Part shown: positions 10,646 through 50,955 of the stretch, piece after piece | Layout: every line of letters begins with the position of its first letter | Numbering within the stretch: the stretch's first letter is position 1 | DNA from: Dimargaris cristalligena | Lineage: Eukaryota | NCBI GenBank assembly: GCA_003614675.1 | Contig: ML002261.1 | Span: 1 to 54,886 of the forward strand | Length of the DNA stretch: 54,886 nt | Reading direction: 5' to 3' | Position numbers and translations under genes: made by a program | Notes under the pieces: generated by a model | Told to the model about the DNA's origin: nothing | Database searches by the model: none | The model's input: only the letters and a program-made list of their open reading frames with translations

Positions 10646-11809
10646 TCACAGCTGGGTAAAAAGCTCCGGATCTTTTGTTTGTAGTTTGGTGACATATGCC
10701 GAAAGCTGCAGGTCGAATTCGTCTTTGAGAGTGTCGGCATTGGCGATTAATGGGAACTTGCTGAATCGTATGTAAGGTGACGCCGTATCCACTAGGTTTC
10801 GTAGATCCTCACATTGGTGACCTTGGTTATTGGTGAAGGCATGTAAAATAAACTTCTCCCCGTGGCCATCCCAGTCAATGGCGTAGAAGTAGTGGGGCTC
10901 GATTTCCGCCTTGGTTGATGTGAAGAATCGGGATAATTTACGCTCAAATTCGTTAGTTTGGTGGGGGACCCCGGAGTACTTCAGAAATAATATCGATTTA
11001 ACGTGGGAGAAGTAGAGCGATATTTGGCTATTAAGGTTAACTCGAAGTCTTGGGAGGAATTCCGTCGATATGGTCGATTCGGATAGTGGCGGGATAGGTA
11101 GTTTAGGGAAAATGCGGTGGGAGAGTGATTTACACGCTTCGATACTACTTTCCACGGTCCTTGTCTGCGATTTGCGGTTTCGTTTCCGTTTTTTAACGGG
11201 AGGTGCGGATTCAGGGGTGGGAGAGAACGGCGTTCGCTGTGGAGATGAAGGGACCTGGTCCTCGGGTGGGATGTGGGTAACCGTTTCTTCGGATACCAAA
11301 TGAATGGATGAGGTGTCCCCCGTGCTGGAGTCACCGTCCCGGGGGGATGCCGGCCAAAGGGAGGATTCGGGTAGGGATGGCTCACTTGGATTTGGCCACG
11401 GTGGAAGGCTGGTTAGTAATGAGCTGGGGGCTAATATCGAATAGATTTCCGGGTCGAGTGTAAAGATATCATCATTACCAGGAAACGGCAAACGGTCGGT
11501 CCGGAAGGTCTCATCCCAGTGACTCATGCCTACATCCGTCACCAGACTAGGATTATCCAACGATGGCGCCGGGGGTGGTGGTAGTATATCGCTGTGGCCC
11601 TGAGCCATCGCTGTGAATAAATTGAGTTCAAACGATTGGTAGTTGTTGTCCAAAAGACGCAGTGATTCTTCCCAGGATGAGGCGACCGTATCCGAGATAC
11701 GGGCTCCAAGGTTGCTTGAAAGCAGATATGGCTCTTGTTGATATTGACCGGCTGCGGTTATACTGTCGAATTCCGCCACCAATAACCCCATTAAAAGCAA
11801 GCATCTCAT
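10646..11809 (-). CDS. Hypothetical secreted protein with acidic N-terminal region, Pro/Ser linker, basic NLS-like motif and ~150-aa folded C-terminal domain
   Basis: Single-exon 387-aa ORF in AT-rich flanks. Hydrophobic N-terminus MRCLLLMGLLVA...ITAAG; PPVKKRKRNRK at ~11171-11203. Confidence 0.7.
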   Translation of the reverse strand: MRCLLLMGLLVAEFDSITAAGQYQQEPYLLSSNLGARISDTVASSWEESLRLLDNNYQSFELNLFTAMAQGHSDILPPPPAPSLDNPSLVTDVGMSHWDETFRTDRLPFPGNDDIFTLDPEIYSILAPSSLLTSLPPWPNPSEPSLPESSLWPASPRDGDSSTGDTSSIHLVSEETVTHIPPEDQVPSSPQRTPFSPTPESAPPVKKRKRNRKSQTRTVESSIEACKSLSHRIFPKLPIPPLSESTISTEFLPRLRVNLNSQISLYFSHVKSILFLKYSGVPHQTNEFERKLSRFFTSTKAEIEPHYFYAIDWDGHGEKFILHAFTNNQGHQCEDLRNLVDTASPYIRFSKFPLIANADTLKDEFDLQLSAYVTKLQTKDPELFTQL

Positions 11810-13726
11810 TATAACAAAGTAGTGGTAATGTTTTTGGAGGAAAAGGCACGAAATAATTACATCAAAATATAAGGTGAGTAATAATAATAATAACTAGGCT
11901 ACCGCGGCTGAATAGGATTTTCGAAGGTAGTGGAGATGATTAATATACAGGCAGGGGAGCCGCCTAAATGACGTAGGTATTTATTAGGATAATGGGCTCG
12001 ATGAAGTTGAGTCGAAAATATGAGTATGGTTAGCTGGTAGCTAGCCCGGACCGCGTGCCATGATATAAGGCACAATTCGAATGACTCTTATATTCTTGAA
12101 CAAGGAAATTAAACAGGCGGCGCCAATGTGATTGGGCCATGGCTGATGCGCAGTCAAACGCAAAGGCCCTTGACCCGTAATGTTGTACTAGAAATTCTAA
12201 AAGGGGAAATAGGTAAGGTTGGGGAATATATGAAGTCTCAAGTTTCCCCCTTATTGGGATTTAAGCTGCCAAACCAGGAAAGGGAGGGGGGCCCAACTAA
12301 GGCAATTCTAATATCGTACCTCGCCCTATACAGGGGAGGGCCAATTTACCTGGAGGTTTTTGGCGCGGTATTTTATATGGAGGCCACACTGGCGTGTACT
12401 ACGAGATTGGGTATAGTCCAGTACAAAGCCAGTCACCTGAGGCCGTCACATTTGCGGCTACCATTCTGCAACCAAAGGGACTGTTATATGGGTGTTACAT
12501 GGTCAAAGTGTGATTGAATCTTTCTCCCCATTATCCACCAGCCTCCGCCAAAAGAGTTTACTGGTCGCCCATCCACCTGATTTGGCCTGCGTTTCATATT
12601 TGGTATTGTTGGGCAATAAATAGGCAAATTCAAGCCCGGGCGCTAGATTAACCCGATAACAATTCAAGGAGCACAAGCCGCCACTTGCCGTATTATTATC
12701 TAGGTGGTATAAAAATAAAGCCGACCCCGCATAATAGGCCCTAGTTATGTGGCGGGTCCCTTACTAACGTTGCGATAAAGTGATCATAGGGATACCGGGG
12801 GCATTTGAAGATTAGATAGGAGATAGAAAACCATTTTGTCTAGGTTTTTTCACCTTTGCTGTTGGGTTTAAAGGTAAATACACATGTGAACTAAAAAGTC
12901 ACAGTACAACACCAAAAAAAAAACGAGCAACCGGGGGTAAATTCACTAATAAATCATGAATAATGGTCTGGTGGGCTGAGTCGGTGGATCTTTAGTTCCC
13001 CAAATCATAATTAAATCTGGTCTCTACTCCCTTTCCAAGTATTATTAAAGACGGCATTGCCTTAGCTACAGTACCTTTATATGGCTACGGTAGCTTACTT
13101 GTTGGGGATAGACGGGGTTCGTGATACCATCCTCCCGCATTTACCCTATGTGTATAGTAATGGGGCGGTTTTTTTCAATGAGGGGCTTTGGGCTGGCCCA
13201 ACAATTGTACTACAGGTATGGACCGAGCGATATTTATGATAGCAGCTGGTCCTGTCTCAGAATAGCCCTGGAAAGGGGAAATGAGAGGATCCCATAGTTC
13301 ATGTTTTGGTCACAGACAGGCTGCGGCGCTAATAGCGGTTAAAGGTGAACAATGTATTTGTCTCTACAACTCTCATTCGTGCTTCAATTAGGTAGACGGA
13401 GAATAAAGGACAAGGAAATAGACACAAAAAAGTCACATCCTTCCCCCACGAGTCGAACTGGTCTTAAGTCACGTGATTGGACCATTCCCCTATAGTAGCA
13501 AAGGAATACCACTTGGGACTCGCCAGTGGCTGTGGACAATCCATTAGCGAATTGGTAAACAATGTCCCCTGTTGTTTCATGGACCCATTCCAACTGACAA
13601 GACCCCATTAGCAGACATTCATTCTACTGACACTTTAAACGTTATTATCTCGAACTTGCTACCCCCGCACCCCTATACATTTATTCATTTATCTAAATAC
13701 CCGAAACCTGTCGCAATCGGCTCCAC

Positions 13727-16968: not shown

Positions 16969-19834
16969 CTACTCCCGGGGAAACGGAATGCCAACAGGAG
17001 GGGGAGTAGCCCAGGTTTTGCTACTACTGCTACTGGTGGACGGTGCCTCCGTTGAACCACGACTCTGACTAGATGCCCGGGTGCTAGATAGGAATGTGCG
17101 TAACACAGGCCGTTTGCCAGCATTGTCGTTGTCCTCGGAAGGAGGTCGCCACGATCCACCCATGGGGCGGGACTTGTTGTTACTGGCCTTGATAACCAGA
17201 ACCTTATGGCCACTCGAGGCAGCCGGAGCAGGCTCTTCGGGCATATCCAGTTTCAGCACAGGTACCAAAGAGGGGAAGAGTCGGTGCTAAAGTAAGAGAA
17301 TCAGTGAAAGAAAAAATAGAATAAAAAATAGTCGAGTAAGATTAGAATGCCATGTCTTTGGATAATTCAACAAGTCTCCGAAGTGAAGATGGCCGCAATA
17401 GATTAAAATACGTCTCAAACTACACGATACTTACCATCAGATTGTGATTTTTCAGTTCGTACAACAGACGCTGGCGTTTATCGGAATCGTCCAAAAGTTT
17501 GGCAACGGCCTCCACGGTATTGTCGAAGAACTCATTAATGTCACCCGAAGTCTCCATCTTCATCAGCGACCAGAGTGCATTGATATAATCCTCCTCAGAC
17601 AAAGTGCCTCGCCGAAGTTCGGTGGTTAAAGAGCGGAATTGGCTGGTTTTGAATTCGGAGTGGTTGAAGAACTTGCCAACTCGGGCCAGAACCCCGGCGT
17701 GGCTCTTAAGGATGGCGTCCGACATACCGGTGGTATTGTTGCTGTCGGGAGTGTTACCGGAGCTGCGACTCTGGCCGTTGGTCGTGGGCTTCTCCGGGAG
17801 GGGGGTGGCAGAAGCGGAGCGATCACTGGCGCTGCCGGAGGACTCGGCGGGCGCCTTACCCTTCTTAGTCTTCTTCGACTTGGCCTGTTGGTTTCCACTG
17901 GAATTACCCGATTGATTGGCAACCGACACATTAACCCCCCATGACGAGACCACCGTGCGGTGTGATGCCTTCGGAGCCTTGGATCGTGGGGCGGGGGCCA
18001 AAGCAGGCCAGTCATTCAGAGCGCTCTGGTTATTGGCGTAGCCGCCCTGGAGAATAGCTGATGCAGAGGGGACGGCGGGCGTGGCAGAAGAAGGAATTGG
18101 TGCATTTTTAGCTGGACGTGGCTGAGCCCGAGCGGGAACGGGAGTGGGGGCGATAGTCTCTATGGGGGGTTCCACCGTGAGTTGGCCGAAACCGGCGGGA
18201 GCCTGTCGGTGTGTCCGTGGCTCAGGGGCGGTCGGTAGAGGCTCTGTAGCATTGGGGAGGTCTTCGACAGCGAAGGTGGGAAGGCCGTGGGGATTTTGGA
18301 CTCGCTCTTCCGCGCGCCCTTGCCGGCCACCACGACGTTCCCGGTTCGGTCCACCAGAGACACTAGGGTAGGAAAAGTCGACATTGATATGCCTATTTTG
18401 GCGGTTGGTCGACCGCTTACTGGCGCCTGGGGGCAAGTGCTCCTCCAGCATATGTGCCTTCAAGTCAATTTCGGAGTCGAAAACGACAAACTTCTTCTCT
18501 AGGCATTCAGGCTTGTTGCACACAAAATGGGCCTTGTGGAAGTGGTTCTCTAATGCCTGGTAGTTGCGGTAGTACTGCTGCCGCCCTTGGCCATTATTGA
18601 CACAAACAAAACACTGCTCGTGACGTTCTCGACAATGATCGAAAAGAGCATCATTGTCGTAAAAAGCACGGTGGCAGAATTCACAACTAGGATGCCCAGT
18701 AAAGCCCGTTTTATCACCCTTACGGTAGTGGGCGGTCAGCTGGGGTTTGCTGAATAGCCGGTGCTCGTGGGCAAAGGCCTTTTTAAAGCGCATACACAAA
18801 TCACACATGTGCTTGTCATGCTCGTCGGCAGTGTGTTTCTTAAGCTCAGCCCAATCACTGTCGGTAACATACGAACACCCACGCCATTGGCACCGGATGC
18901 TCAGCAGGTCAAAGGATGAATCAGCAACCTCCTGGGAGCAAAACCGAATGCCCAACTCATCGTCCCGGCAGGGGAGGTCTTGGTCGTTATACTCGGCGTA
19001 GCGTTTCCCATCGGGTGGGACTATTATGACGTTGTCCAGTTCAGTCTGAAAACGATTGGCAAATAGCAATAGTCAGTTTAGGGGTTGATTAGATATATAG
19101 TGGTGAATAATGGGATCAGAAGGAATTATAAGCAGCTGATGCAAGATTGACATCACAATTCCAGAGAGTGCCTTAGGGGTGGAGTGAGGGGGTACGTAAA
19201 ATAGAGCAGTACAGCCCACTATTTCTTTAGAAAGAAACTGCGGGGAATGATGAGGGGGCGATAGGCTGCGGAAATAATAATCCTTGGGGAAGGGTCGATT
19301 GGATGGAAGAAAACGAAATTCTTTGGAACACTAGCCGATTAAGGGGATAGGAATAGACTGGGTTTCCGGATGGTATTACAAAGGGTTGGTCAGTATGGGT
19401 TATCAGATAGGGGGACTTACTTTGCAATAGGGACATGCATTATTTTTATACAGAGCACGAAGTCGCAGAGTGCAAATGTGGCAAGTGGGGTGATCGCATG
19501 ATCCCATGGCCTGGTACTTGATGGGATGGGTGCAAATGATACAAACGTCACTGTCATCGACTTCCGGTGTCTCCTTGGGGGCCGCCCGGGTGCCAGTACG
19601 GGCTTTCCGGGGAGCGGATTCACGTTTCCCAGATCGGCTCTTGGGGGGAGCACGGGGGGAGGAGTTATTTTTGGTCTCACCCGATTCTCCACCCACGGCT
19701 GCTGACGCGGCTGCAGTGGCGGGGGCCTTGCCTCGGTTGGAGGACTTGCATGGTCCCCCTCTAGAGGCTGGACGGGACTTGCCGCCGCTCGATCCAGTGG
19801 CTTCGGTGGGCTGCTGTGACTCGGGGTTAGACAT
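16969..19834 (-). CDS. HEL2: RING/C2H2 zinc-finger E3 ubiquitin ligase Hel2/ZNF598 (ribosome quality control)
   Basis: Exons 19834-19421 (RING CIIC...CDHPTCHICTLRLRALYKNNACPYCK), 19045-17435 (C2H2 fingers: CDLC..FKKAFAHE, GHPSCEFC..AFYDNDALFDHCRERHEQCFVC, HFVC..CLEKKFVVFDSEIDLKAH) and 17286-16969. Donors are gtaagt. The 3' end is less certain. Confidence 0.92.
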
Positions 19835-21646: not shown

Positions 21647-23287
21647 TTACTGCTGTTGCTGTTTTTGCTGCACTTGGACTATGAGCATTTGAATGTCTCG
21701 GACCATCTCCGGCTCGGTTCGGTCTGCAATAAAGGCTTCAAAGTCGACCTCATCGTTACCAATGCGCGTGGCTTCTTCGTCCAGCTGCTCTACATTCGGG
21801 TCATTCAGCCCCAGCGTAACGATAGGTTGCCCAAATTCACTCTGGTTCGAAAAGTATAGCCAGACGTTGGCCGGGAGAATAGGCTGGTCATCATTCGTGG
21901 GCCCGGGGTAATAGTCTCCCATGTCGAAGTTCCACTGCTGGGCCAGCCAACGGGCCGCTTCTCTTTGGCCGATATCTCGGACATGATCCACCAGTTCAGC
22001 TTGATCCAGATGTTCGACCATAACCACCTGTCCGTCGTTCATAGTACGGGACTCCGGGATCCACATATGTTGCAGAGGGTCTAATAGTTCAGCCTTCCGA
22101 TACACTGCAGCCATAGCCAAGGCGAGTCGAACGTACCGATTGTACACCCGCGCATCCTGCTCCTGATTGCGTGGCAAATCACCCACGGCGTGGTAGAGAG
22201 TCCGTACTTCCACCAACAGGTCCTGCAAGTGTCCGGCCTGGTCCGTAGATACGTACTGCCATATCAGCGTAGCGGTAATTTTACCCAAGACCCGTTCCAT
22301 CCATTTATCGTACCGTGTCGCTTCGTCCTGTCCCGGGTACCAAGTAGCCGCCCAAATGCGTCGGCGAAACCCCTGGTCCAAGGCCAGACCTTCCAGTACC
22401 CATTGCCGGGTTTGGGCACTAAATACATGGCGCAGCAACCGGACTATATCCGAGGAGGGCCAATTAGTAGCCAGGGGTACCATGGGCAGAATGCCGGTGG
22501 CCGCCCCCACAGGCAGACTGCTGAGGTTGATGATACTACGGGCATTCCGCTCGGTTAAAAGATTCTCGTTACGGGTTAGGGCTAGGAAAGCCACGTAGTT
22601 GGCGTGATTGGGCCGCTGGTCTAACAACGGCAAATGGGGATTAGGCTCACTGCCGAATAGCTCGCGGTGGGCTAAGTGTTCCCCCCAGTTTTCGTAAGCG
22701 GCTTCTATCAGGGCGGACCAGGTCTCATAGCCAAACAAGGCCAGCCAAGTGTCCGCCAAGTTCAGTTTGTCCGCATCTGTGGCGGGCGTTCCCTCCACAG
22801 CTTTAATAAACGCGTCCGCCATAAGAGAAGCCTGATTTCGGTGGAATTAGATAGAGGCGGAAGTGGGGGTCGGTAAATATAATCTAGATTATTAGTCACC
22901 CGCCTATTGCGGTGAGTAGGTTCCGCATACTCATTAATGTAACATTCAATTATTAGTATACTACGTTATGAAAACCCAATGCCTCGTCGAACTGGGCCGG
23001 TTTAACCTTTTATCAAGTGAGGGAGTATGAATGTAAATAGTAATACTACTCTCGCTGCTACTTCCCGGCCGAGCAGTGGCTGTCTTCCCGGTCAAACGAA
23101 AGTATTGATTGACTTTATCCAATTGAGTCTTGTCATTGACCCCCAGATACCCCGAAATCATGGAGACTGTTTCACGGGGCAGACTGACCAGGCCCCGGCG
23201 TTCGACCATGGGCCTACTCGAGCACTGGAGGGACAGAAGGGCCAGAGCGGTCAAGGACAGGAGGTAAGTGGGGCGTAAAATAGCCAT
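21647..23287 (-). CDS. Putative secreted F-box-like protein (signal peptide, F-box-like motif, ~390-aa helical domain ending in poly-Q); junction between the two ORFs unresolved
   Basis: 5' ORF from 23287: signal peptide MAILRPTYLLSLTALALLSLQCSS, dibasic ERR, then LVSLPRETVSMISGYLGVNDKTQLDKVNQYFR. The 3' exon has branch ctaat and a phase-0 acceptor cag| at 22831, leading into the 391-aa ORF 22822-21647. No canonical donor in the matching phase was found; a small middle exon (VKPAQFDEALGFHN, ~23007-22966) or a frameshift is possible. Confidence 0.55.
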
Positions 23288-23598
23288 GGGTCGAGGAGTC
23301 GCTAGAAAACGCGGTGGGTGGGATAATGCGGTGGTGAGAGCAAGTAGGTAAAGGCCGTATGATAAAGTGGTGGAGGCGCGGACTATGCAGATGGGGTTGG
23401 GGATTGCTCAAAAACAATTGATGGGAATGAGGGAAGCGAAGCATAGAGTATATATATCTCTGTATAGCCCTTAATCCAAATACATCCCCAGGTACGAACT
23501 AAAGTAGTCCTATACCCCGTTATTCCCGAGGGCTCCCTCCCTACGAGGGTATTTCGGAACACAAGAATTGGTCAATAAATTTCAATGCCGTGTAATCC

Positions 23599-23742
23599 AT
23601 ATGGGAGAAGTTCATTAAGGCTGTATAACAAAAAATCCATTGGGTGAGGCCAATATTACTGGTTAAAGGCTTTTCTCACATATATTCACCCATACACATA
23701 TTATGTAAAACCTTATACAGCTGGTTTGAATTTCATCCATAT
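23599..23742 (+). mobile_element. 144-bp MITE-like element with ~30-bp imperfect terminal inverted repeats, copy 1
   Basis: Begins atatgggagaagttcattaaggctgtataa and ends ttatacagctggtttgaatttcatccatat. Similar to 23790-23933 and, inverted, to 43508-43651. Confidence 0.75.
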
Positions 23743-23789
23743 ATTAATGTGAGTGGGGGCCATGCAATAATACCCCTTCGCCATTGACC

Positions 23790-23933
23790 ATATGGGAGAA
23801 GTTCATCCAAGCTGTATAACGAAAAATCCATTAGATTCGGCCAATATTACTAGTTAAAAATAAATTTCCCATATATTCTCCCATACACATATAATGTAAA
23901 CCCTTATATAGCTGGGCTGAATTTCACCCATAT
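23790..23933 (+). mobile_element. 144-bp MITE-like element, copy 2 (tandem with copy 1, 47-bp spacer)
   Basis: atatgggagaagttcatccaagctgtataacgaaaaatccatt...ggccaatattactagttaaa...cccatacacatataatgtaaacccttatatagctgggctgaatttcacccatat; same length as copy 1. Confidence 0.75.
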
Positions 23934-25487
23934 CTCTAAAGCTATACAAAAGTCCCATAATATACGCCACTAGAGAACGCTTTTACCCTCGGTTATTTTT
24001 ATATATGCACTATAAACAATCCCAATACGCACGCCCTAACGATGCCGAACTTCGTACCACGCCATTGTGTAAATCTAATGGTGCGAGTGGCCTTCTACGA
24101 AGGGGCTTAGTACAACCCAAAGGACTTTGGGCTCAGGTCGTGAATAAGCGACTCCATTGGACATTCTTTCTGATGTCGAGGCATAGAAGTGTATAGCCAG
24201 GTAGGAAAAGGCGCACAAGGCACCTTATCCCATAGTCCAGCATGTATTAGGCCTGTGCTATTTTTAGTAATTTAAGATAGGCTAAACGGCTAATTGGTGG
24301 CATATTATATTCAACAGCTCGTTCACAATGAATCCCTCTCTTCCTCTATCGTATTTTCCCCATTCTTGGTTAAGCATGCCTTGTTGGGGAAAACACCAAT
24401 CCTGCCCTACTTTTCGCCATTTGGTCCGTCCGCACCGCCGCACTATGATCGGGGGGGAACGGTATTTTAGCAACGCCAATTACCAATATGACTCGGTTCA
24501 TTCGTATTCTTACCGATATAATAGGTACCGCTATTTTGGCCAACTACTATTCTAATACCGTAGCGGAATCCACGCAGTTGAGTTTCATATTAGATACAGC
24601 TGCAAGAGCTGATTCTAGCAGGATTTAACTAGGGCTTCACGAGGGGTTATCGGTATGGGTGATATGAGGTAAGCGCAATAAATAGGTCACAGAATCATAG
24701 GCCGCGGGAGCCTGCAGGAGGATTATTTATCCTCAGGGATGGCACCGGTAGGTCATCCAAGAAACGATAAGACAGCCCCAAGTGTTGTTATGCAAAAGGT
24801 ACTACGGTATAGTAATGTTTAGCTTGGATAAATACCAACCAAGTCAAAGAGCCTGGGTATAATAGTGCGGATTAATCTTTACCCCCCACCAATGATGGGC
24901 ATCACTGGTCCAATTTATCGATTAATGAGTATTTATAAAATATAACGAGATAGATGGGTGGGCAGTGGGTGATGGGCAAGTTGGCTAAAAGTACCCTTGG
25001 CTCAAGCTGTACTTAAGATAAGCTCCATAGCGAATCTACCAAATCCACAAATTGCCTTCTCAAAAGTCGGGGACAGAGCTGAAAAATGCGATGAATAACA
25101 TTCGTGATAATTCTGTATATAAACTAGAGCGAGTTAGCTGGTATAATCAATACGATATGTGTAATGGGGGGGGGGGGGGGTAAAAATAAAATAAATCGTA
25201 TAGTGAAATAGGTGGTATAGAAAAGGGGGATATAGATAAGCAAAAAATGCATGGTGAAAAAAGCCAATAAAAATGGATCGGAGGTAGATCAAAATTCTAG
25301 CGATGGCCAAACCCCCCCCCCCCAAAAAAAAACACAAAAGTCTAGATGACTGTGACCTCGTCCACAAGTCTCGTTCGACATTATTTAGTCGACTAATGGA
25401 TTAATTGGGCTTAACGGAGGAAAAGGGGTAGGTGAGGTGGGGCGGAGGAGACTATGTCCAACCATCACTAGCTAAAGAGAGATTGGT

Positions 25488-30529: not shown

Positions 30530-31246
30530 GGTGAAAAGTAGGTATATAGTAAAATAAGGCTTCGAACTAAGTGGAGGAGGACTGCACCGGATCGGGCTGA
30601 AAAGAGGGGAAAATACGACAATGGCGTTGTAGGGGAATGACGCAAGTACGGAACCGACAAACGGAGTATACACAGAGGAACTCGTTTCAGATAAGTAAGC
30701 AAAGGAATGGTATTGAGCAAAAAGGAGGCGATGCTCTCGAAATGAAATATGCCAGTGGATTCGTCACTAAGAGCCGAGTAAAAAAATATAAAGTAAAAAT
30801 TGGCCTATTGAAACAGCAGGGTGTTTTTTTACCACATAACTAGAGTGGTGTACATACTTTGGTTAATTCGATCTATTGAGCAACTATTACAGCTGCACAA
30901 TGAGAAACGTACGAGAATCAGCCATGCTATTCCTTTTAAGCAATCCCCGTAGCCTGGCGGATGTCGACAAAAACGACCACATGTCAGTGTCAGTAGGGGT
31001 GACTTGATTCCGAACAGAGCCGTTCAATCACCCATACCCTTGTTTGGCGGGCATTTATTCTGCAGGCCGTAGTTTTTATCGCTTGTGAATAGGAAGGGCT
31101 GCTGCTACTCTTTCCCGCATTACTGGGCTATACCACCCCCTACTCTGAACATTCCCTTGCGCATCCTATGTTACCTCTCGTTCCTTTCCTTTTCCTGCAC
31201 CATTTACTTCCTCACTCTTCCTATTTCACTTTATATACCTGAGAGA

Positions 31247-37110: not shown

Positions 37111-39195
37111 GGCTGGGTCGGGAGGGAAAAATGGAGGAGATTGAGGCACCGAGGTCTGCGACAAAGCAAGAAAGAATATAGAAGTAGAGAGCCAAGCGCC
37201 TAGAGGAATAGAGAGTTAAGAAGGGGCTGGATTGTATATACTATTGGGGCAAATGGGTGCTCCACTCCTCCCCTCCCTCCATATGAACTTGGTGCGACTT
37301 GTGAATCGCATTCCTTGCTTGGTTGACGTAGATTGTTAGAGGACTAACCAATAGTAAACCCGTTATGGGACATATATAGTGAATCAATAGTCAATCAATA
37401 AACGTTGGTCTTTTCTCTTCTCTCTTACTTGATTTAATGCTAACATAGATCCTCCCCCTCTGGCCTACAACGAGTGTGGGGGTAAAGTAATTGGAATGCC
37501 CGAATCGTTGTCACTGCACACATATCACTGGAACCCCTGATTCAAACCCAAAACTTACTTGAAACGCCTCAAGTATTACTTCTGGCCTACCAGCTGATTA
37601 CTTAACTTGCCCCCCAAGATACTTCTTGAATACTGTGTGATTTTTACTATGGATCCAATGCCACATGTAATTAATTAATACAGTAGCTAGGCAATTACAA
37701 ATTAGGAAAAACGGGGTAGGTATCAAATGGCTTGGCCATCATCTAGGATTACATTGTAATAGTTAGAGATTAGCCCAGTTTTCGTATAGAGGCAGGGGGT
37801 ATCGATGGGGTAGTGCGGACAGTAGCCTCGACTAGGCGTTTCAACTCAGTTTGATGTAGAACGGAGGCAGGACAAACCTATATATTTGTGTATTTTATCC
37901 TGGACGATAGCCTGTAAGTGTTAATAAGGAAAACAGGTCGGATAAATCTAATGCCGGCTTTGGAATGGCCCTCAAGAATGAGGGAAAACCGTTCATCTAA
38001 TCATTATGGTATTATTTAGCCCTTGGTTTGCAATCCGGACAATGAGCCTGTCTGGAGCAGCAAGGGAGAGGAGAGACAGGGTGGGCTACTCCTTCTCTGC
38101 TACAGTCTTATAACCAGTATAGTTCGGGACATTTTCGCCCAATCTCCAGCTGGATGGTAGTGGTCGTCACTCCTATCCTTTAAGCTGAGCTGCTCCCTGT
38201 TCCAACCCCCCCCTCCACCACCACCACCACTATGGAGAGAATCCATTAACTACCGATCGGTCGGTAAATTAAAAATCTACCGCCCCAAGTGAAGAGGAAT
38301 GTTATTGGCAATAGCCACTTTAAATAGGGGTTGGTGAGTTTAGGGAGATTGCCTCAATGCCCATTTATAACCCGTCACCATTATAAAACCCCCCTTTACG
38401 TGGAACGGTCGAGGGAGACGGGTGGGGCGGTGGCCATTACGCCTAATTTGGTTCTAGTAGCACTCACTCAGTCGTAGGACTATATGAATAGATTATTTTG
38501 AAGAATATTATTTTTTTGGATACAGTATTGTATACAACTATGATATATATATATTCCAAGTCGGATTCATAATACATGGACCCGGCTAATGATCGGACTT
38601 TGACAGAAAATTTAATAGTCATGGAGCACCTTAGCCGGCCAATACACCCATTTGACTTGAGGCCCGTATCCCCCGCTCATTTTAAATGAAAACACGTTAT
38701 TTTTCCCTGCGTCTGCGTGAGACCTTCATTAGCAAGGTTGATATATCCACGGGGATTGGATGGTCTAGGGCTGGCGAAGATAGTAAGGAATGCGGAGGGT
38801 TCTCCTTGACAGAGCTACGGTAGATTTGCCAGACTTGGGCGGGTACTAAGAGCGGATCATCCATTAACCTCTTTGTTGTTCAACGAGAACAATTAAAAGG
38901 CGAGTTTTGATACTACATGCCCCACTCTGTTATATCAACGAGGAAACGAACAGCGGGTGTGGGGATTTGGACTGAGGATAGCCCAGCGAGGCTGATTGTT
39001 ATCGTAAAAGATTACTAACCCTTCCTCCTCCTCCTAGTGCAACTCCTTCCCCCCTGTACACCCGACTCTTGACGTCTTATAAACGGAAACAAGGGATCGG
39101 GCATTGATTAATGACGGGGGATCGCCTAATCTTGGTGTAGGTGGGGCACCCGAAATAATATCGCCACTGCCTCGAAGAAGATAGAAATACGTGAG

Positions 39196-43507: not shown

Positions 43508-43651
43508 ATATGGGTGAAGTTCGGCTCAGTGGTATAAGGTTTTAACTGATATGTGTGCGGGAAAATTGGTGGGATGTTTATTTTCAACCAGTAGTATTTG
43601 CCTCATCAAATGGATTTTTTGTTATACAGCCTAGTTGAACTACTCCCACAT
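43508..43651 (-). mobile_element. 144-bp MITE-like element, copy 3 (inverted relative to copies 1 and 2)
   Basis: atatgggtgaagttcggctcagtggtataaggtttta...aaccagtagtatttgcctcatcaaatggattttttgttatacagcctagttgaactactcccacat is the reverse complement of copy 1 with scattered substitutions; same length. Confidence 0.75.
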
Positions 43652-50280: not shown

Positions 50281-50955
50281 TAAAGGTTTGGCCTCGCTTA
50301 AATACCGATCCAATTATACGCACCAAGCAGCTGATAATTTGATGTAAGGATATAAATATTACCTTTTTGTAATCCAAGAGGCTGTGTTATATTAACGCTT
50401 TCAGTGGGATGCCATCTGAAAAATAAAGATGCCTGCCGGTAATATTGGATTTCCGCCCATTTTGACACCAAGGAATTAAAGGTCGTAATCCAGGGTTTAC
50501 CAATTAAATGTTTTGGCTGTCATCTAAGTTGGCATTATTGCACTGGGTCAAATTGAGCCCCTGAAACAGCCGCTGTAGTAATGCCTTTATCTGGTGGTGG
50601 GTGATATGTGAGTGGTCTTTTTTGACCCATCAGGTCGTTTGTTTACATTTTGGTAGCTTGGATTATCACTGAGCCAATCAATACAAATCTACTGGCTCAG
50701 GCTATTATTTACCCAGTCTGTTTTGCCCAACTAACCTCTCCTCCTCTATACCAATAGGCCTCTATCAATAATACCACACAGCTAACATCCTGTACTCTGT
50801 ATTCGTTTCCAACTACCCGTTTTTTCACTAACAAGTGGACTTTTACGCCTCCCTCGACTCCATTTCTTTTAGCCTGTTTTCTGTTATCCCCAATATTTTA
50901 CATATTCTAAGAAATAACCACTCTTTCTAATTCCCCTACTTTGTCGATTGCAACA

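Follow-up and report, generated by a model that had tools for sequence, protein, structure and literature searches.

Gene Model and Coding Evidence

The window analyzed in this study is the whole 54,886-nucleotide contig ML002261.1 of Dimargaris cristalligena (GCA_003614675.1). Its minus strand carries a gene of two exons (23287..23050 and 22800..21650) split by a 249-nt intron, and the same model gives a public 463-aa hypothetical protein of D. cristalligena that is identical in two public records. The exon-1 frame begins with the ATG at 23287 (minus strand) and stays open as far as 22964, which corresponds to 108 aa. A second open reading frame (ORF2; 21647..22846, minus strand) lies in frame with exon 1. 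The two are separated by 8 in-frame stops, all of which fall in the intron of the public gene model (22801..23049, minus strand; GTAGTA...TTAAAG, GC 0.41). The end of exon 1 (23050..23095) encodes a Gly/Ser/Thr-rich linker and terminates in phase 1 at 23050, and exon 2 (21650..22800) encodes an orphan domain of ~385 aa that is Trp-rich, Cys-free, and predicted to be helical, followed by the stop codon TAA (21647..21649, minus strand). The in-frame codon log-likelihood was 0.218 for exon 1 and 0.243 for exon 2, compared with 0.20–0.40 for 11 neighboring genes and −0.40 for the intron. Introns of this size occur in the region, as indicated by a 375-nt intron (GTAAGT...TTTCAG) in a neighboring ZNF598-like gene.

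The original prediction placed the junction of the two ORFs between ~23040 and 22831. An intron can join them, and both public records carry this join. The frame stays open with 14 GT..AG combinations, and we infer the splice junction 23050/22800. Independent translation from the own ATG of ORF2 (22822) was judged unlikely, because 3 upstream ATGs and a pyrimidine fraction of only 0.55 precede it; the lack of the usual leader at this ATG favors the spliced model. RNA families, tRNAs, and tandem repeats were each looked for, and none was found. We take the locus to be a genuine nuclear gene with two exons that is restricted to one species, the haustorial mycoparasite D. cristalligena.

Signal-Peptide-like N-Terminus and Translation Start

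A classical signal peptide has a charged n-region, an h-region of 7–15 hydrophobic residues, and small residues at positions −3 and −1. Residues 1–24 of the protein (23216..23287, minus strand) resemble this arrangement, with R5 in the n-region, an h-region spanning T7–L20, a c-region containing QCSS, and a putative cleavage site at S24/R25. The h-region TYLLSLTALALLSL (residues 7–20) comprises 14 positions, none of them charged or polar, and C22-S23-S24 preceding R25 is consistent with the −3/−1 rule. This anatomy was recognized by a heuristic. The codon log-likelihood of residues 1–24 was 0.313 in frame, whereas the alternative frames scored −0.22 and −0.18. Mitochondrial targeting was considered and rejected, since one Arg and, after it, 14 uncharged residues presumably do not make an amphipathic, Arg-rich presequence. 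Further downstream, E29-R30-R31 (23195..23203, minus strand), previously read as a Kex2-like site, is indeed present. The protein has two [KR]R sites, of which this is one, and on its own a dibasic pair says little about such processing.

A pyrimidine-rich 5′ leader or promoter tract (23288..23440, minus strand; C+T of 0.70–0.71 on the gene strand) lies just downstream of a TATA-like run (23457..23449, minus strand), and it continues unbroken into the codons of residues 1–24, for which C+T is 0.69. The tract as a whole (~230 nt, 23440..23210) spans the signal-peptide codons and stops exactly at the second in-frame ATG, which encodes M27 (23207..23209, minus strand). At M27 the pyrimidine fraction falls by 0.21, compared with a mere 0.03 at M1, and a drop of 0.11–0.33 was found at the start codons of 8 of 10 neighboring genes. 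The same kind of tract (pyrimidine fraction of 0.61–0.72 from −150 to −1) precedes the first in-frame ATG in 9 of these 10 neighbors. The two ATGs share an identical weak context, CCCATGG, and there is no ATG in the 150 nt upstream of 23287. Upstream ATGs are depleted in the neighbors' leaders (8 observed versus 18.7 expected), which suggests that the leaders are probably transcribed and that 23287 would be the first AUG; an upstream ATG nevertheless occurs within 100 nt in 5 of the 10. When the 231-nt leaders of the 10 neighbors were translated in three frames, uncharged runs of at least 14 residues appeared in 4 of 30 frames, and in 8 of 30 the hydropathy over 15 residues reached 1.74 or more, indicating that such leaders can mimic signal peptides. 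In the present gene, the ATG-free stretch before M1 encodes a second hydrophobic run in the same frame. On the other hand, a neighboring DnaJ gene with a hydrophobic N-terminus showed a pyrimidine drop of just 0.03, so that the composition argument does not discriminate M1 from M27. The translation start that creates the signal peptide is ambiguous. The signal peptide of the original prediction has a fitting n/h/c anatomy, and its codons lie within a pyrimidine-rich tract continuing from the leader and depend on this ambiguous start.

F-Box-like Motif

The conserved positions of an F-box comprise LP.E, I, L, D, L, V, and W/F (partly as listed in the original prediction). An F-box-like motif, LVSLPRETVSMISGYLGVNDKTQLDKVNQYFR, occupies residues 33–64 (23096..23191, minus strand), and the earlier claim of a consensus match at 23191–23096 was exact in letters and position: 11 of the 12 specified positions agreed, the single miss being T40 in place of the consensus I. 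Motif regexes, composed after seeing the sequence, each gave one match in the six-frame window, which was this site. For the relaxed regex, the chance expectation was 0.006 per window and 0.17 per 3.2-million-residue proteome, values that disregard mismatched core positions and therefore overstate the significance. The polar residues T40, S45, K53, and T54 occupy four positions that we take to belong to the hydrophobic core of F-boxes.

The F-box HMM match proposed as a check on the claim was absent: Pfam returned 0 families at E ≤ 10, F-box models such as PF00646 and PF12937 included, for five query forms, namely the 108-aa exon-1 frame, short pieces of 53, 37, and 49 aa, and the full-length protein. 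The HMMER filters discard most matches above E ~ 0.1, so this null bounds the score and is still compatible with a very divergent F-box. A phmmer search of the PDB with the 53-aa piece gave 3 matches at E of at least 0.72, with 0 F-box chains. AlphaFold2 (AF2) modeled this piece at a pLDDT of 61 with two helices rather than the three of an F-box, and a Foldseek comparison of the model with the PDB, uninformative in itself with all E values above 3, contained 0 F-box entries in 18 matches. The ESM Atlas gave a different picture. Searched by features, residues 27–80 fell beside F-box clusters at 0.88, 0.86, and 0.83, and every match listed was an F-box cluster; searched by structure with the model made by the Atlas itself, all 10 of the 10 rows, covering residues 27–68, were of F-box type (9 with an F-box Pfam family and the tenth named FBXL13), with TM scores by query of 0.45–0.56 over 34–41 aligned residues. 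The best Atlas match had 111 of 256 features in common, a level that the tool's calibration assigns to chance or a distant relative. The position of the motif right behind the N-terminus, together with the Atlas results, is more F-box-like than chance resemblance predicts. No Skp1 was detected in the window, where 38 of 69 ORFs of at least 110 aa were scanned, or among the matches of the other searches. As the evidence stands, a degenerate or chance resemblance is more likely for this stretch than a working Skp1-binding F-box.

Orphan Status and the C-Terminal Domain

Sequence searches recovered the protein itself as the sole match, whether by word-indexed search with ORF2 (6683 candidates) or residues 27–80 (8 candidates), or by exhaustive phmmer against 1.84 billion representatives. 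No paralogue was found by tblastn inside the window, the next-best match having E = 1.7, and a pattern scan of bacterial and archaeal contigs matched 118 stretches, none of which was confirmed as a relative. Pfam-A hmmscan at E ≤ 10 returned 0 families for the 108-aa exon-1 frame, ORF2, and the full 463 aa, and NCBIfam likewise returned 0. The protein thus matches itself only, a lineage restriction of the kind looked for in effectors. UniProt names UniRef100_A0A4Q0A2I7 after DUF1800 (PF08811); this label was not reproduced by Pfam (0 at E ≤ 10) or NCBIfam (0), no prokaryotic relative was found, and the Dimargaris protein has nothing beyond the label in common with that family.

The earlier description of a ~390-aa helical orphan domain with an acidic tail was correct as to the orphan status, with neither family nor homologue, and as to the tail: the last 60 residues (21650..21829, minus strand) carry a net charge of −9 and end in a Gln-rich run. 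Its helical character is less secure, since AF2 gave a mainly helical model of the full protein at a pLDDT of 37.3, which is unusable. Internal repeats were not detected in the C-terminal domain (score of 33 versus 33.2 ± 3.8 in shuffles). A PDB sequence search with the full protein gave two weak matches, to a C-type lectin (E = 0.0024) and to FBXW24 (E = 0.66), the latter aligned to residues 99–159 and hence outside the F-box-like motif. An Atlas search with the full-length protein listed ankyrin-type clusters at 0.84–0.89, which we record as a lead only.

Interpretation of the Gene Product

With a confidence somewhat short of even, we favor a reading in which this orphan protein is secreted and is a candidate effector, its likeness to an F-box being unproven. 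Translation would begin at the first ATG (23287), and the N-terminal signal peptide would route the nascent chain into the ER and be cleaved off behind Ser24. The exported product would then be a mainly helical protein of ~440 aa, rich in Trp and free of Cys, that ends in an acidic tail, and by the usual criteria such an exported orphan is a candidate effector at the parasite–host interface. The start codon, the secretion, and the role at the host interface are what we infer here. Dimargaritales are described as parasitizing Mucoromycota by means of an appressorium and a haustorium (PMC9866270). Like lineage-specific candidate effectors of haustorial fungi, the protein combines a signal-peptide-like N-terminus with the absence of homologues and recognizable domains in a biotrophic haustorial producer; being 463 aa long and having no cysteine, it does not resemble the small Cys-rich class. 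This departure from the classic apoplastic type counts against the secreted-orphan reading. Nine supplementary files of the genome paper contained no match for "F-box", "secret", or the protein number, and Dimargaris is not named in the main text of a zygomycete secretome paper (PMC9391592).

The original prediction went further and proposed the hijacking of a host SCF ubiquitin ligase, in which the protein would be secreted from the haustorium and enter the host cytosol, its divergent F-box docking onto host Skp1 while the C-terminal domain recruits host proteins for ubiquitination. This is unlikely in our estimation. It draws on the same signal-peptide anatomy and orphan status, the latter typical of effectors, as well as on the haustorial lifestyle of D. 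cristalligena, the 11 of 12 consensus positions, the placement of residues 27–80 beside F-box clusters by features and structure, and a Cys-free mature part suited to the reducing cytosol. A eukaryotic precedent, as presented in PMC4617103, comes from the SSGP-71 proteins of the Hessian fly, which combine an F-box with LRRs and interact with Skp proteins of their host. Against these stand the missing HMM match, the polar residues at presumed core positions, the two-helix AF2 piece and its Foldseek result free of F-boxes, the ambiguous start codon, and the fact that one gene and no family is involved. Moreover, none of the papers listed in our literature searches reports a secreted fungal F-box effector, and the discussion section of PMC8146833 notes a lack of material tying eukaryotic F-box domains to pathogenicity. 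In a bolder variant, dual targeting would arise by leaky scanning at the first ATG, whose context is weak: the one mRNA would encode both a secreted product and a cytosolic product beginning at M27. The F-box look-alikes in the Atlas would also fit an ordinary adaptor of the fungus's own SCF, for which translation would start at M27 (23209). The motif would then begin at residue 7, a position seen in many F-box proteins. Such proteins reside in the cytosol or nucleus, and lineage-specific C-terminal domains are frequent among them. The apparent signal peptide would in this case amount to the leader read in frame or, at the most, would anchor the protein in a membrane with the remainder in the cytosol. 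The pyrimidine tract that ends at M27 with the larger drop argues for this, as do the ease with which the neighbors' leaders give hydrophobic runs, the second in-frame run upstream of M1, and the upstream ATGs within 100 nt of half of the neighbors. It requires, however, that an in-frame upstream ATG, a full n/h/c anatomy, and the lack of a stop coincide, a combination whose frequency we roughly put at well below 2% per gene; the depletion of upstream ATGs in leaders implies that 23287 would normally be used, the DnaJ neighbor shows an equally small drop, and the F-box HMMs are negative here as well. We consider such an endogenous adaptor rather improbable.

Two further explanations are given little weight. 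The product may be a cytosolic orphan in which neither the signal peptide nor the F-box works, in keeping with the lack of a family, homologue, or confident fold, the ability of leaders to mimic signal peptides, and the negative F-box tests. This seems highly improbable, as two independent coincidences would have to meet at one N-terminus, and the Atlas result and the low chance expectation of the motif make it hard to ascribe both of them to coincidence alone. Alternatively, the locus may consist of two unlinked ORFs, a 108-aa small secreted peptide and a 391-aa protein from ATG 22822, or be a decaying, untranscribed orphan. The genome paper has 0 instances of "Transcriptom" in its main text, the intron donor is GTAGTA where the neighboring gene has GTAAGT, the 14 GT..AG joins leave alternatives, and there are no homologues to reveal purifying selection. 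However, both ORFs lie in one frame with coding-type codon usage, ATG 22822 has 3 upstream ATGs and lacks a typical leader, the stop of the exon-1 frame is only 139 nt from that ATG, and the same join appears in two public annotations, so that we give this explanation hardly any credence.

Comparison with Known F-Box Proteins

The Dimargaris protein shares with canonical F-box proteins (PF00646/PF12937) the N-terminal spacing L..LP.E....I..YL...D...L..V...F, a large C-terminal domain that may hold a substrate, and the F-box clusters that the Atlas gives as look-alikes of residues 27–80. It differs from them in having no HMM match, polar residues at presumed core positions, and a signal-peptide-like segment ahead of the motif, and its C-terminal domain is none of the WD40, LRR, or Kelch types and has no detectable repeats. 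VirF and AnkB are bacterial F-box effectors. Ralstonia RipG/GALA are described as further members of this class (PMC4617103). What these effectors share with the proposal for Dimargaris is mimicry of an F-box adaptor of the host, whereas the bacterial proteins have recognizable F-boxes and are delivered by type III or IV systems instead of a signal peptide. SSGP-71 agrees with the proposal in architecture and logic, in that a eukaryotic parasite secretes a protein whose N-terminal F-box is followed by a C-terminal domain for target binding. As far as it is described in PMC4617103, however, SSGP-71 is a large insect family with a recognizable cyclin-like F-box and LRR and experimental Skp interaction, while the Dimargaris protein is a single fungal orphan with no recognizable domain, known from sequence alone.

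Significance

To our knowledge, effectors have hardly been studied in early-diverging fungi that parasitize other fungi, and no secreted fungal F-box effector was listed in the literature searches. If the protein does not bind Skp1, the locus would serve as a useful caution on the pyrimidine-rich leaders of the D. cristalligena genome, as these translate into signal-peptide-like peptides and secretome predictions based on the first ATG can consequently be inflated. In the less probable event that host Skp1 is bound, it would be the first fungal F-box mimic to carry a signal peptide, acting between one fungus and another, its mucoralean host. SCF mimicry would then reach beyond bacteria, viruses, and a gall midge to fungus–fungus parasitism, and the protein would provide a handle on the host targets.

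Gene Location and Structure

The feature was found on the minus strand where the original prediction had placed it, and its open reading frames and motif letters were confirmed. The exon-1 frame (P0001) runs for 108 codons from the ATG at 23287 (M1) to a stop at 22963..22961, and a second minus-strand frame (ORF2, P0002; 22846..21647) contains an ATG at 22822 that opens 391 codons. Both share one reading frame, with eight in-frame stops between them, and the second in-frame Met codon, M27, is located at 23209. In the public 463-aa model, exon 1 (23287..23050) and exon 2 (22800..21650) are joined across a 249-nt intron (23049..22801, GTAGTA...TTAAAG), all on the minus strand. The proposed linkage of the two ORFs is supported by the common frame and the public model, and the modelled junction is one among 14 GT..AG combinations between the ORFs that keep the frame open.

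Per-codon usage was scored against 11 neighbouring genes, whose own range is 0.20–0.40. In the proposed frame, exon 1 reached 0.218 and exon 2 0.243, the other frames were negative, and the intron scored −0.40 with a GC content of 0.41. The ORF2 ATG at 22822 lacks the usual pyrimidine-rich leader (C+T fraction 0.55) and has three ATGs upstream, and we therefore favour the spliced two-exon model over a separate start at 22822. An apparent phase-0 intron of 375 nt in the neighbouring ZNF598/Hel2-like gene (19046-19420, minus; GTAAGT...TTTCAG, with an ACTGAC branch-like site) unites a RING-finger ORF with a zf-C2H2_13/PAH ORF in phase, as checked by hand, so that introns of the target's size do occur in this window. 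The main text of the genome paper makes no mention of transcriptome data, and 9 of its supplements contained no match for F-box, secretion or the number of the target protein.

Orphan Status and Genomic Surroundings

A search of ORF2 against 5.8 billion proteins gave 1 match among 6683 candidates, a Dimargaris cristalligena hypothetical protein of 463 aa (99% identity), which two annotation projects have deposited at NCBI, giving two accessions, and which UniRef lists once (UniRef100_A0A4Q0A2I7). Exhaustive phmmer against 1.84 billion cluster representatives found nothing besides the protein itself, as did a region-restricted search with residues 27–80 (8 candidates); tblastn across the window detected no paralogue, and 118 pattern matches in bacterial and archaeal genomes yielded no confirmed relative. 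Pfam and NCBIfam scans returned no family for the target protein at E ≤ 10, and the UniProt name "DUF1800 domain-containing protein" given to the UniRef entry, which these current scans do not support, is therefore not reproduced here. The C-terminal domain carries the predicted acidic tail and, as predicted, is without family or homologue in the searches run; it has 0 Cys, 13 Trp, and two N-glycosylation sequons, and no internal repeats were detectable. The Dimargaritales are described as parasitising Mucoromycota hosts via an appressorium and haustorium (PMC9866270). In this haustorial mycoparasite, the target gene is a true orphan.

The surrounding window is ordinary nuclear DNA by Pfam content. 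Scanning 38 of the 69 ORFs of at least 110 aa, with overlapping shadow frames omitted, identified RNase PH, DnaJ, ZNF598-like RING, coronin-type WD40, AP sigma, MPP6, UPF3, PPR, DOT1, EamA transporter, EEP nuclease, and MCM5 genes.

The F-box-Like Stretch

The F-box-like stretch LVSLPRETVSMISGYLGVNDKTQLDKVNQYFR comprises residues 33–64 and corresponds exactly to 23191..23096 on the minus strand. It agrees with the originally proposed consensus at 11 of the 12 specified positions, but the F-box HMM check suggested there, run with Pfam on five query forms, reported no F-box model, a result that only bounds the score owing to the HMMER filters. Each of the motif regexes, which were written post hoc, had a single match across the six frames of the window. 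Chance alone would give the relaxed form 0.006 matches in a window and 0.17 in a 3.2-million-residue proteome, figures that overstate significance because they ignore the polar T40, S45, K53, and T54, which occupy what we take to be core hydrophobic positions of the F-box.

When residues 27–80 were submitted to the ESM Atlas, every row listed by features was an F-box cluster (0.88, 0.86, 0.83 and below), although by the tool's own calibration a score below 0.9 with 111/256 shared features is a lead only. All 10 structure rows were F-box-type clusters, nine of them showing an F-box Pfam family and one bearing the name FBXL13, and their alignments covered residues 27–68 with a TM by query of 0.45–0.56; both searches draw on the same sequence letters as the motif. 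AF2 modelled the motif piece as two helices (pLDDT 61), with which Foldseek returned nothing meaningful, and PDB phmmer with this piece gave 0 F-box chains among 3 matches. An FBXW24 match to the whole protein (PDB phmmer, E = 0.66) aligned outside the motif and was rejected. A genuine F-box here is thus possible but doubtful, and the target is not assigned to the F-box family because no HMM matched.

Probable Signal Peptide and Start Codon

Residues 1–24 exhibit textbook signal-peptide anatomy, and the predicted E-R-R site is present at residues 29–31. The anatomy fits the original prediction, but a tract of ~70% pyrimidine on the gene strand extends from 23440 through the same codons and ends at M27, after which the fraction is 0.49. 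The pyrimidine drop is 0.03 at M1 versus 0.21 at M27, and that at the ATGs of neighbours is 0.11–0.33 in 8 of 10 genes; the DnaJ neighbour, with a hydrophobic N-terminus, likewise drops by just 0.03. That neighbour and the fact that a signal peptide rich in Leu/Ala/Ser/Thr is necessarily pyrimidine-rich both weaken this caveat. When the leaders of 10 neighbours were translated in three frames, uncharged runs of at least 14 residues appeared in 4 of the 30 frames, and hydropathy equalled or exceeded that of the target in 8. The target leader encodes a further hydrophobic run upstream of M1, where there is no ATG.

Upstream ATGs are rarer in leaders than chance (8 observed vs 18.7 expected), which suggests that leaders are transcribed; 23287 would then be the first AUG. 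M1 and M27 both lie in the weak context CCCATGG, and a purine occupies −3 in 8 of 10 neighbours. By rough reckoning, few genes would by chance show full signal-peptide anatomy after an upstream ATG in the same frame, and we therefore regard the signal peptide, predicted from its anatomy, as probably real.

Weighing of the Readings

The readings were weighed inferentially with rough judgemental priors. The one we tentatively place first is a secreted orphan, a candidate effector, whose F-box likeness is unproven. Either element may plausibly be genuine, but proteins combining a signal peptide with an F-box are rare. Given a genuine signal peptide, a secreted orphan that resembles an F-box protein by chance is likelier than a secreted F-box protein. 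The original prediction of a secreted F-box effector hijacking a host SCF ligase, sound in its observation of the letters, is an attractive minority reading, a candidate only, and improbable. Its nearest functional analogues are the SSGP-71 proteins of the Hessian fly and RipG7 of Ralstonia, described as having recognisable F-boxes and a demonstrated Skp interaction (PMC4617103). Among the papers listed by literature searches (20 of 227 and 15 of 156), none reports a secreted fungal F-box effector, which is not proof of absence, and there was no paper on Dimargaris cristalligena and F-boxes.

Given a genuine F-box, the effector has a rival of about equal probability in an endogenous adaptor translated from M27, where the pyrimidine tract ends; it would make the textbook anatomy of residues 1–24 artefactual, and is also unlikely overall. 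That neither element is real, the Atlas clusters and the N-terminal anatomy both misleading, seems very unlikely, and a mis-modelled or decaying locus, for which the choice of junctions leaves room and against which the in-frame codon scores argue, slightly more so. The secreted orphan stays our tentatively preferred reading.

Other Features of the Window

A MITE-like dispersed element of 146 nt, with terminal inverted repeats of roughly 30 nt, occurs as a tandem pair (23597-23742 and 23788-23933, 84% identical) 310–650 nt upstream of the target ATG, and as a third, 75% identical copy on the opposite strand (43508-43651). The 2.2-kb gene-poor spacer from the coronin-like gene to the target gene contains long homopolymer runs at ~25310-25335 and ~25160-25185 (in minus-strand reading, one a T-run then about 13 G, the other about 15 C). 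The plus-strand ORF at 683-2599 (639 codons) matched no Pfam family at E ≤ 0.001. The minus-strand ORF at 10649-11893 (415 codons, no Pfam family) has a signal-peptide-like N-terminus from its first in-frame Met and may, judged from sequence, encode another orphan secreted protein.

In 9 of 10 genes examined, a sense-strand pyrimidine-rich tract of 150–240 nt (C+T 0.61–0.72) lies directly 5' of the first in-frame ATG, for example at 50806-50955 (plus), 31097-31246 (plus), and 37111-37260 (minus). Such leaders often translate into hydrophobic signal-like peptides, which matters for secretome prediction in the Dimargaris cristalligena genome.
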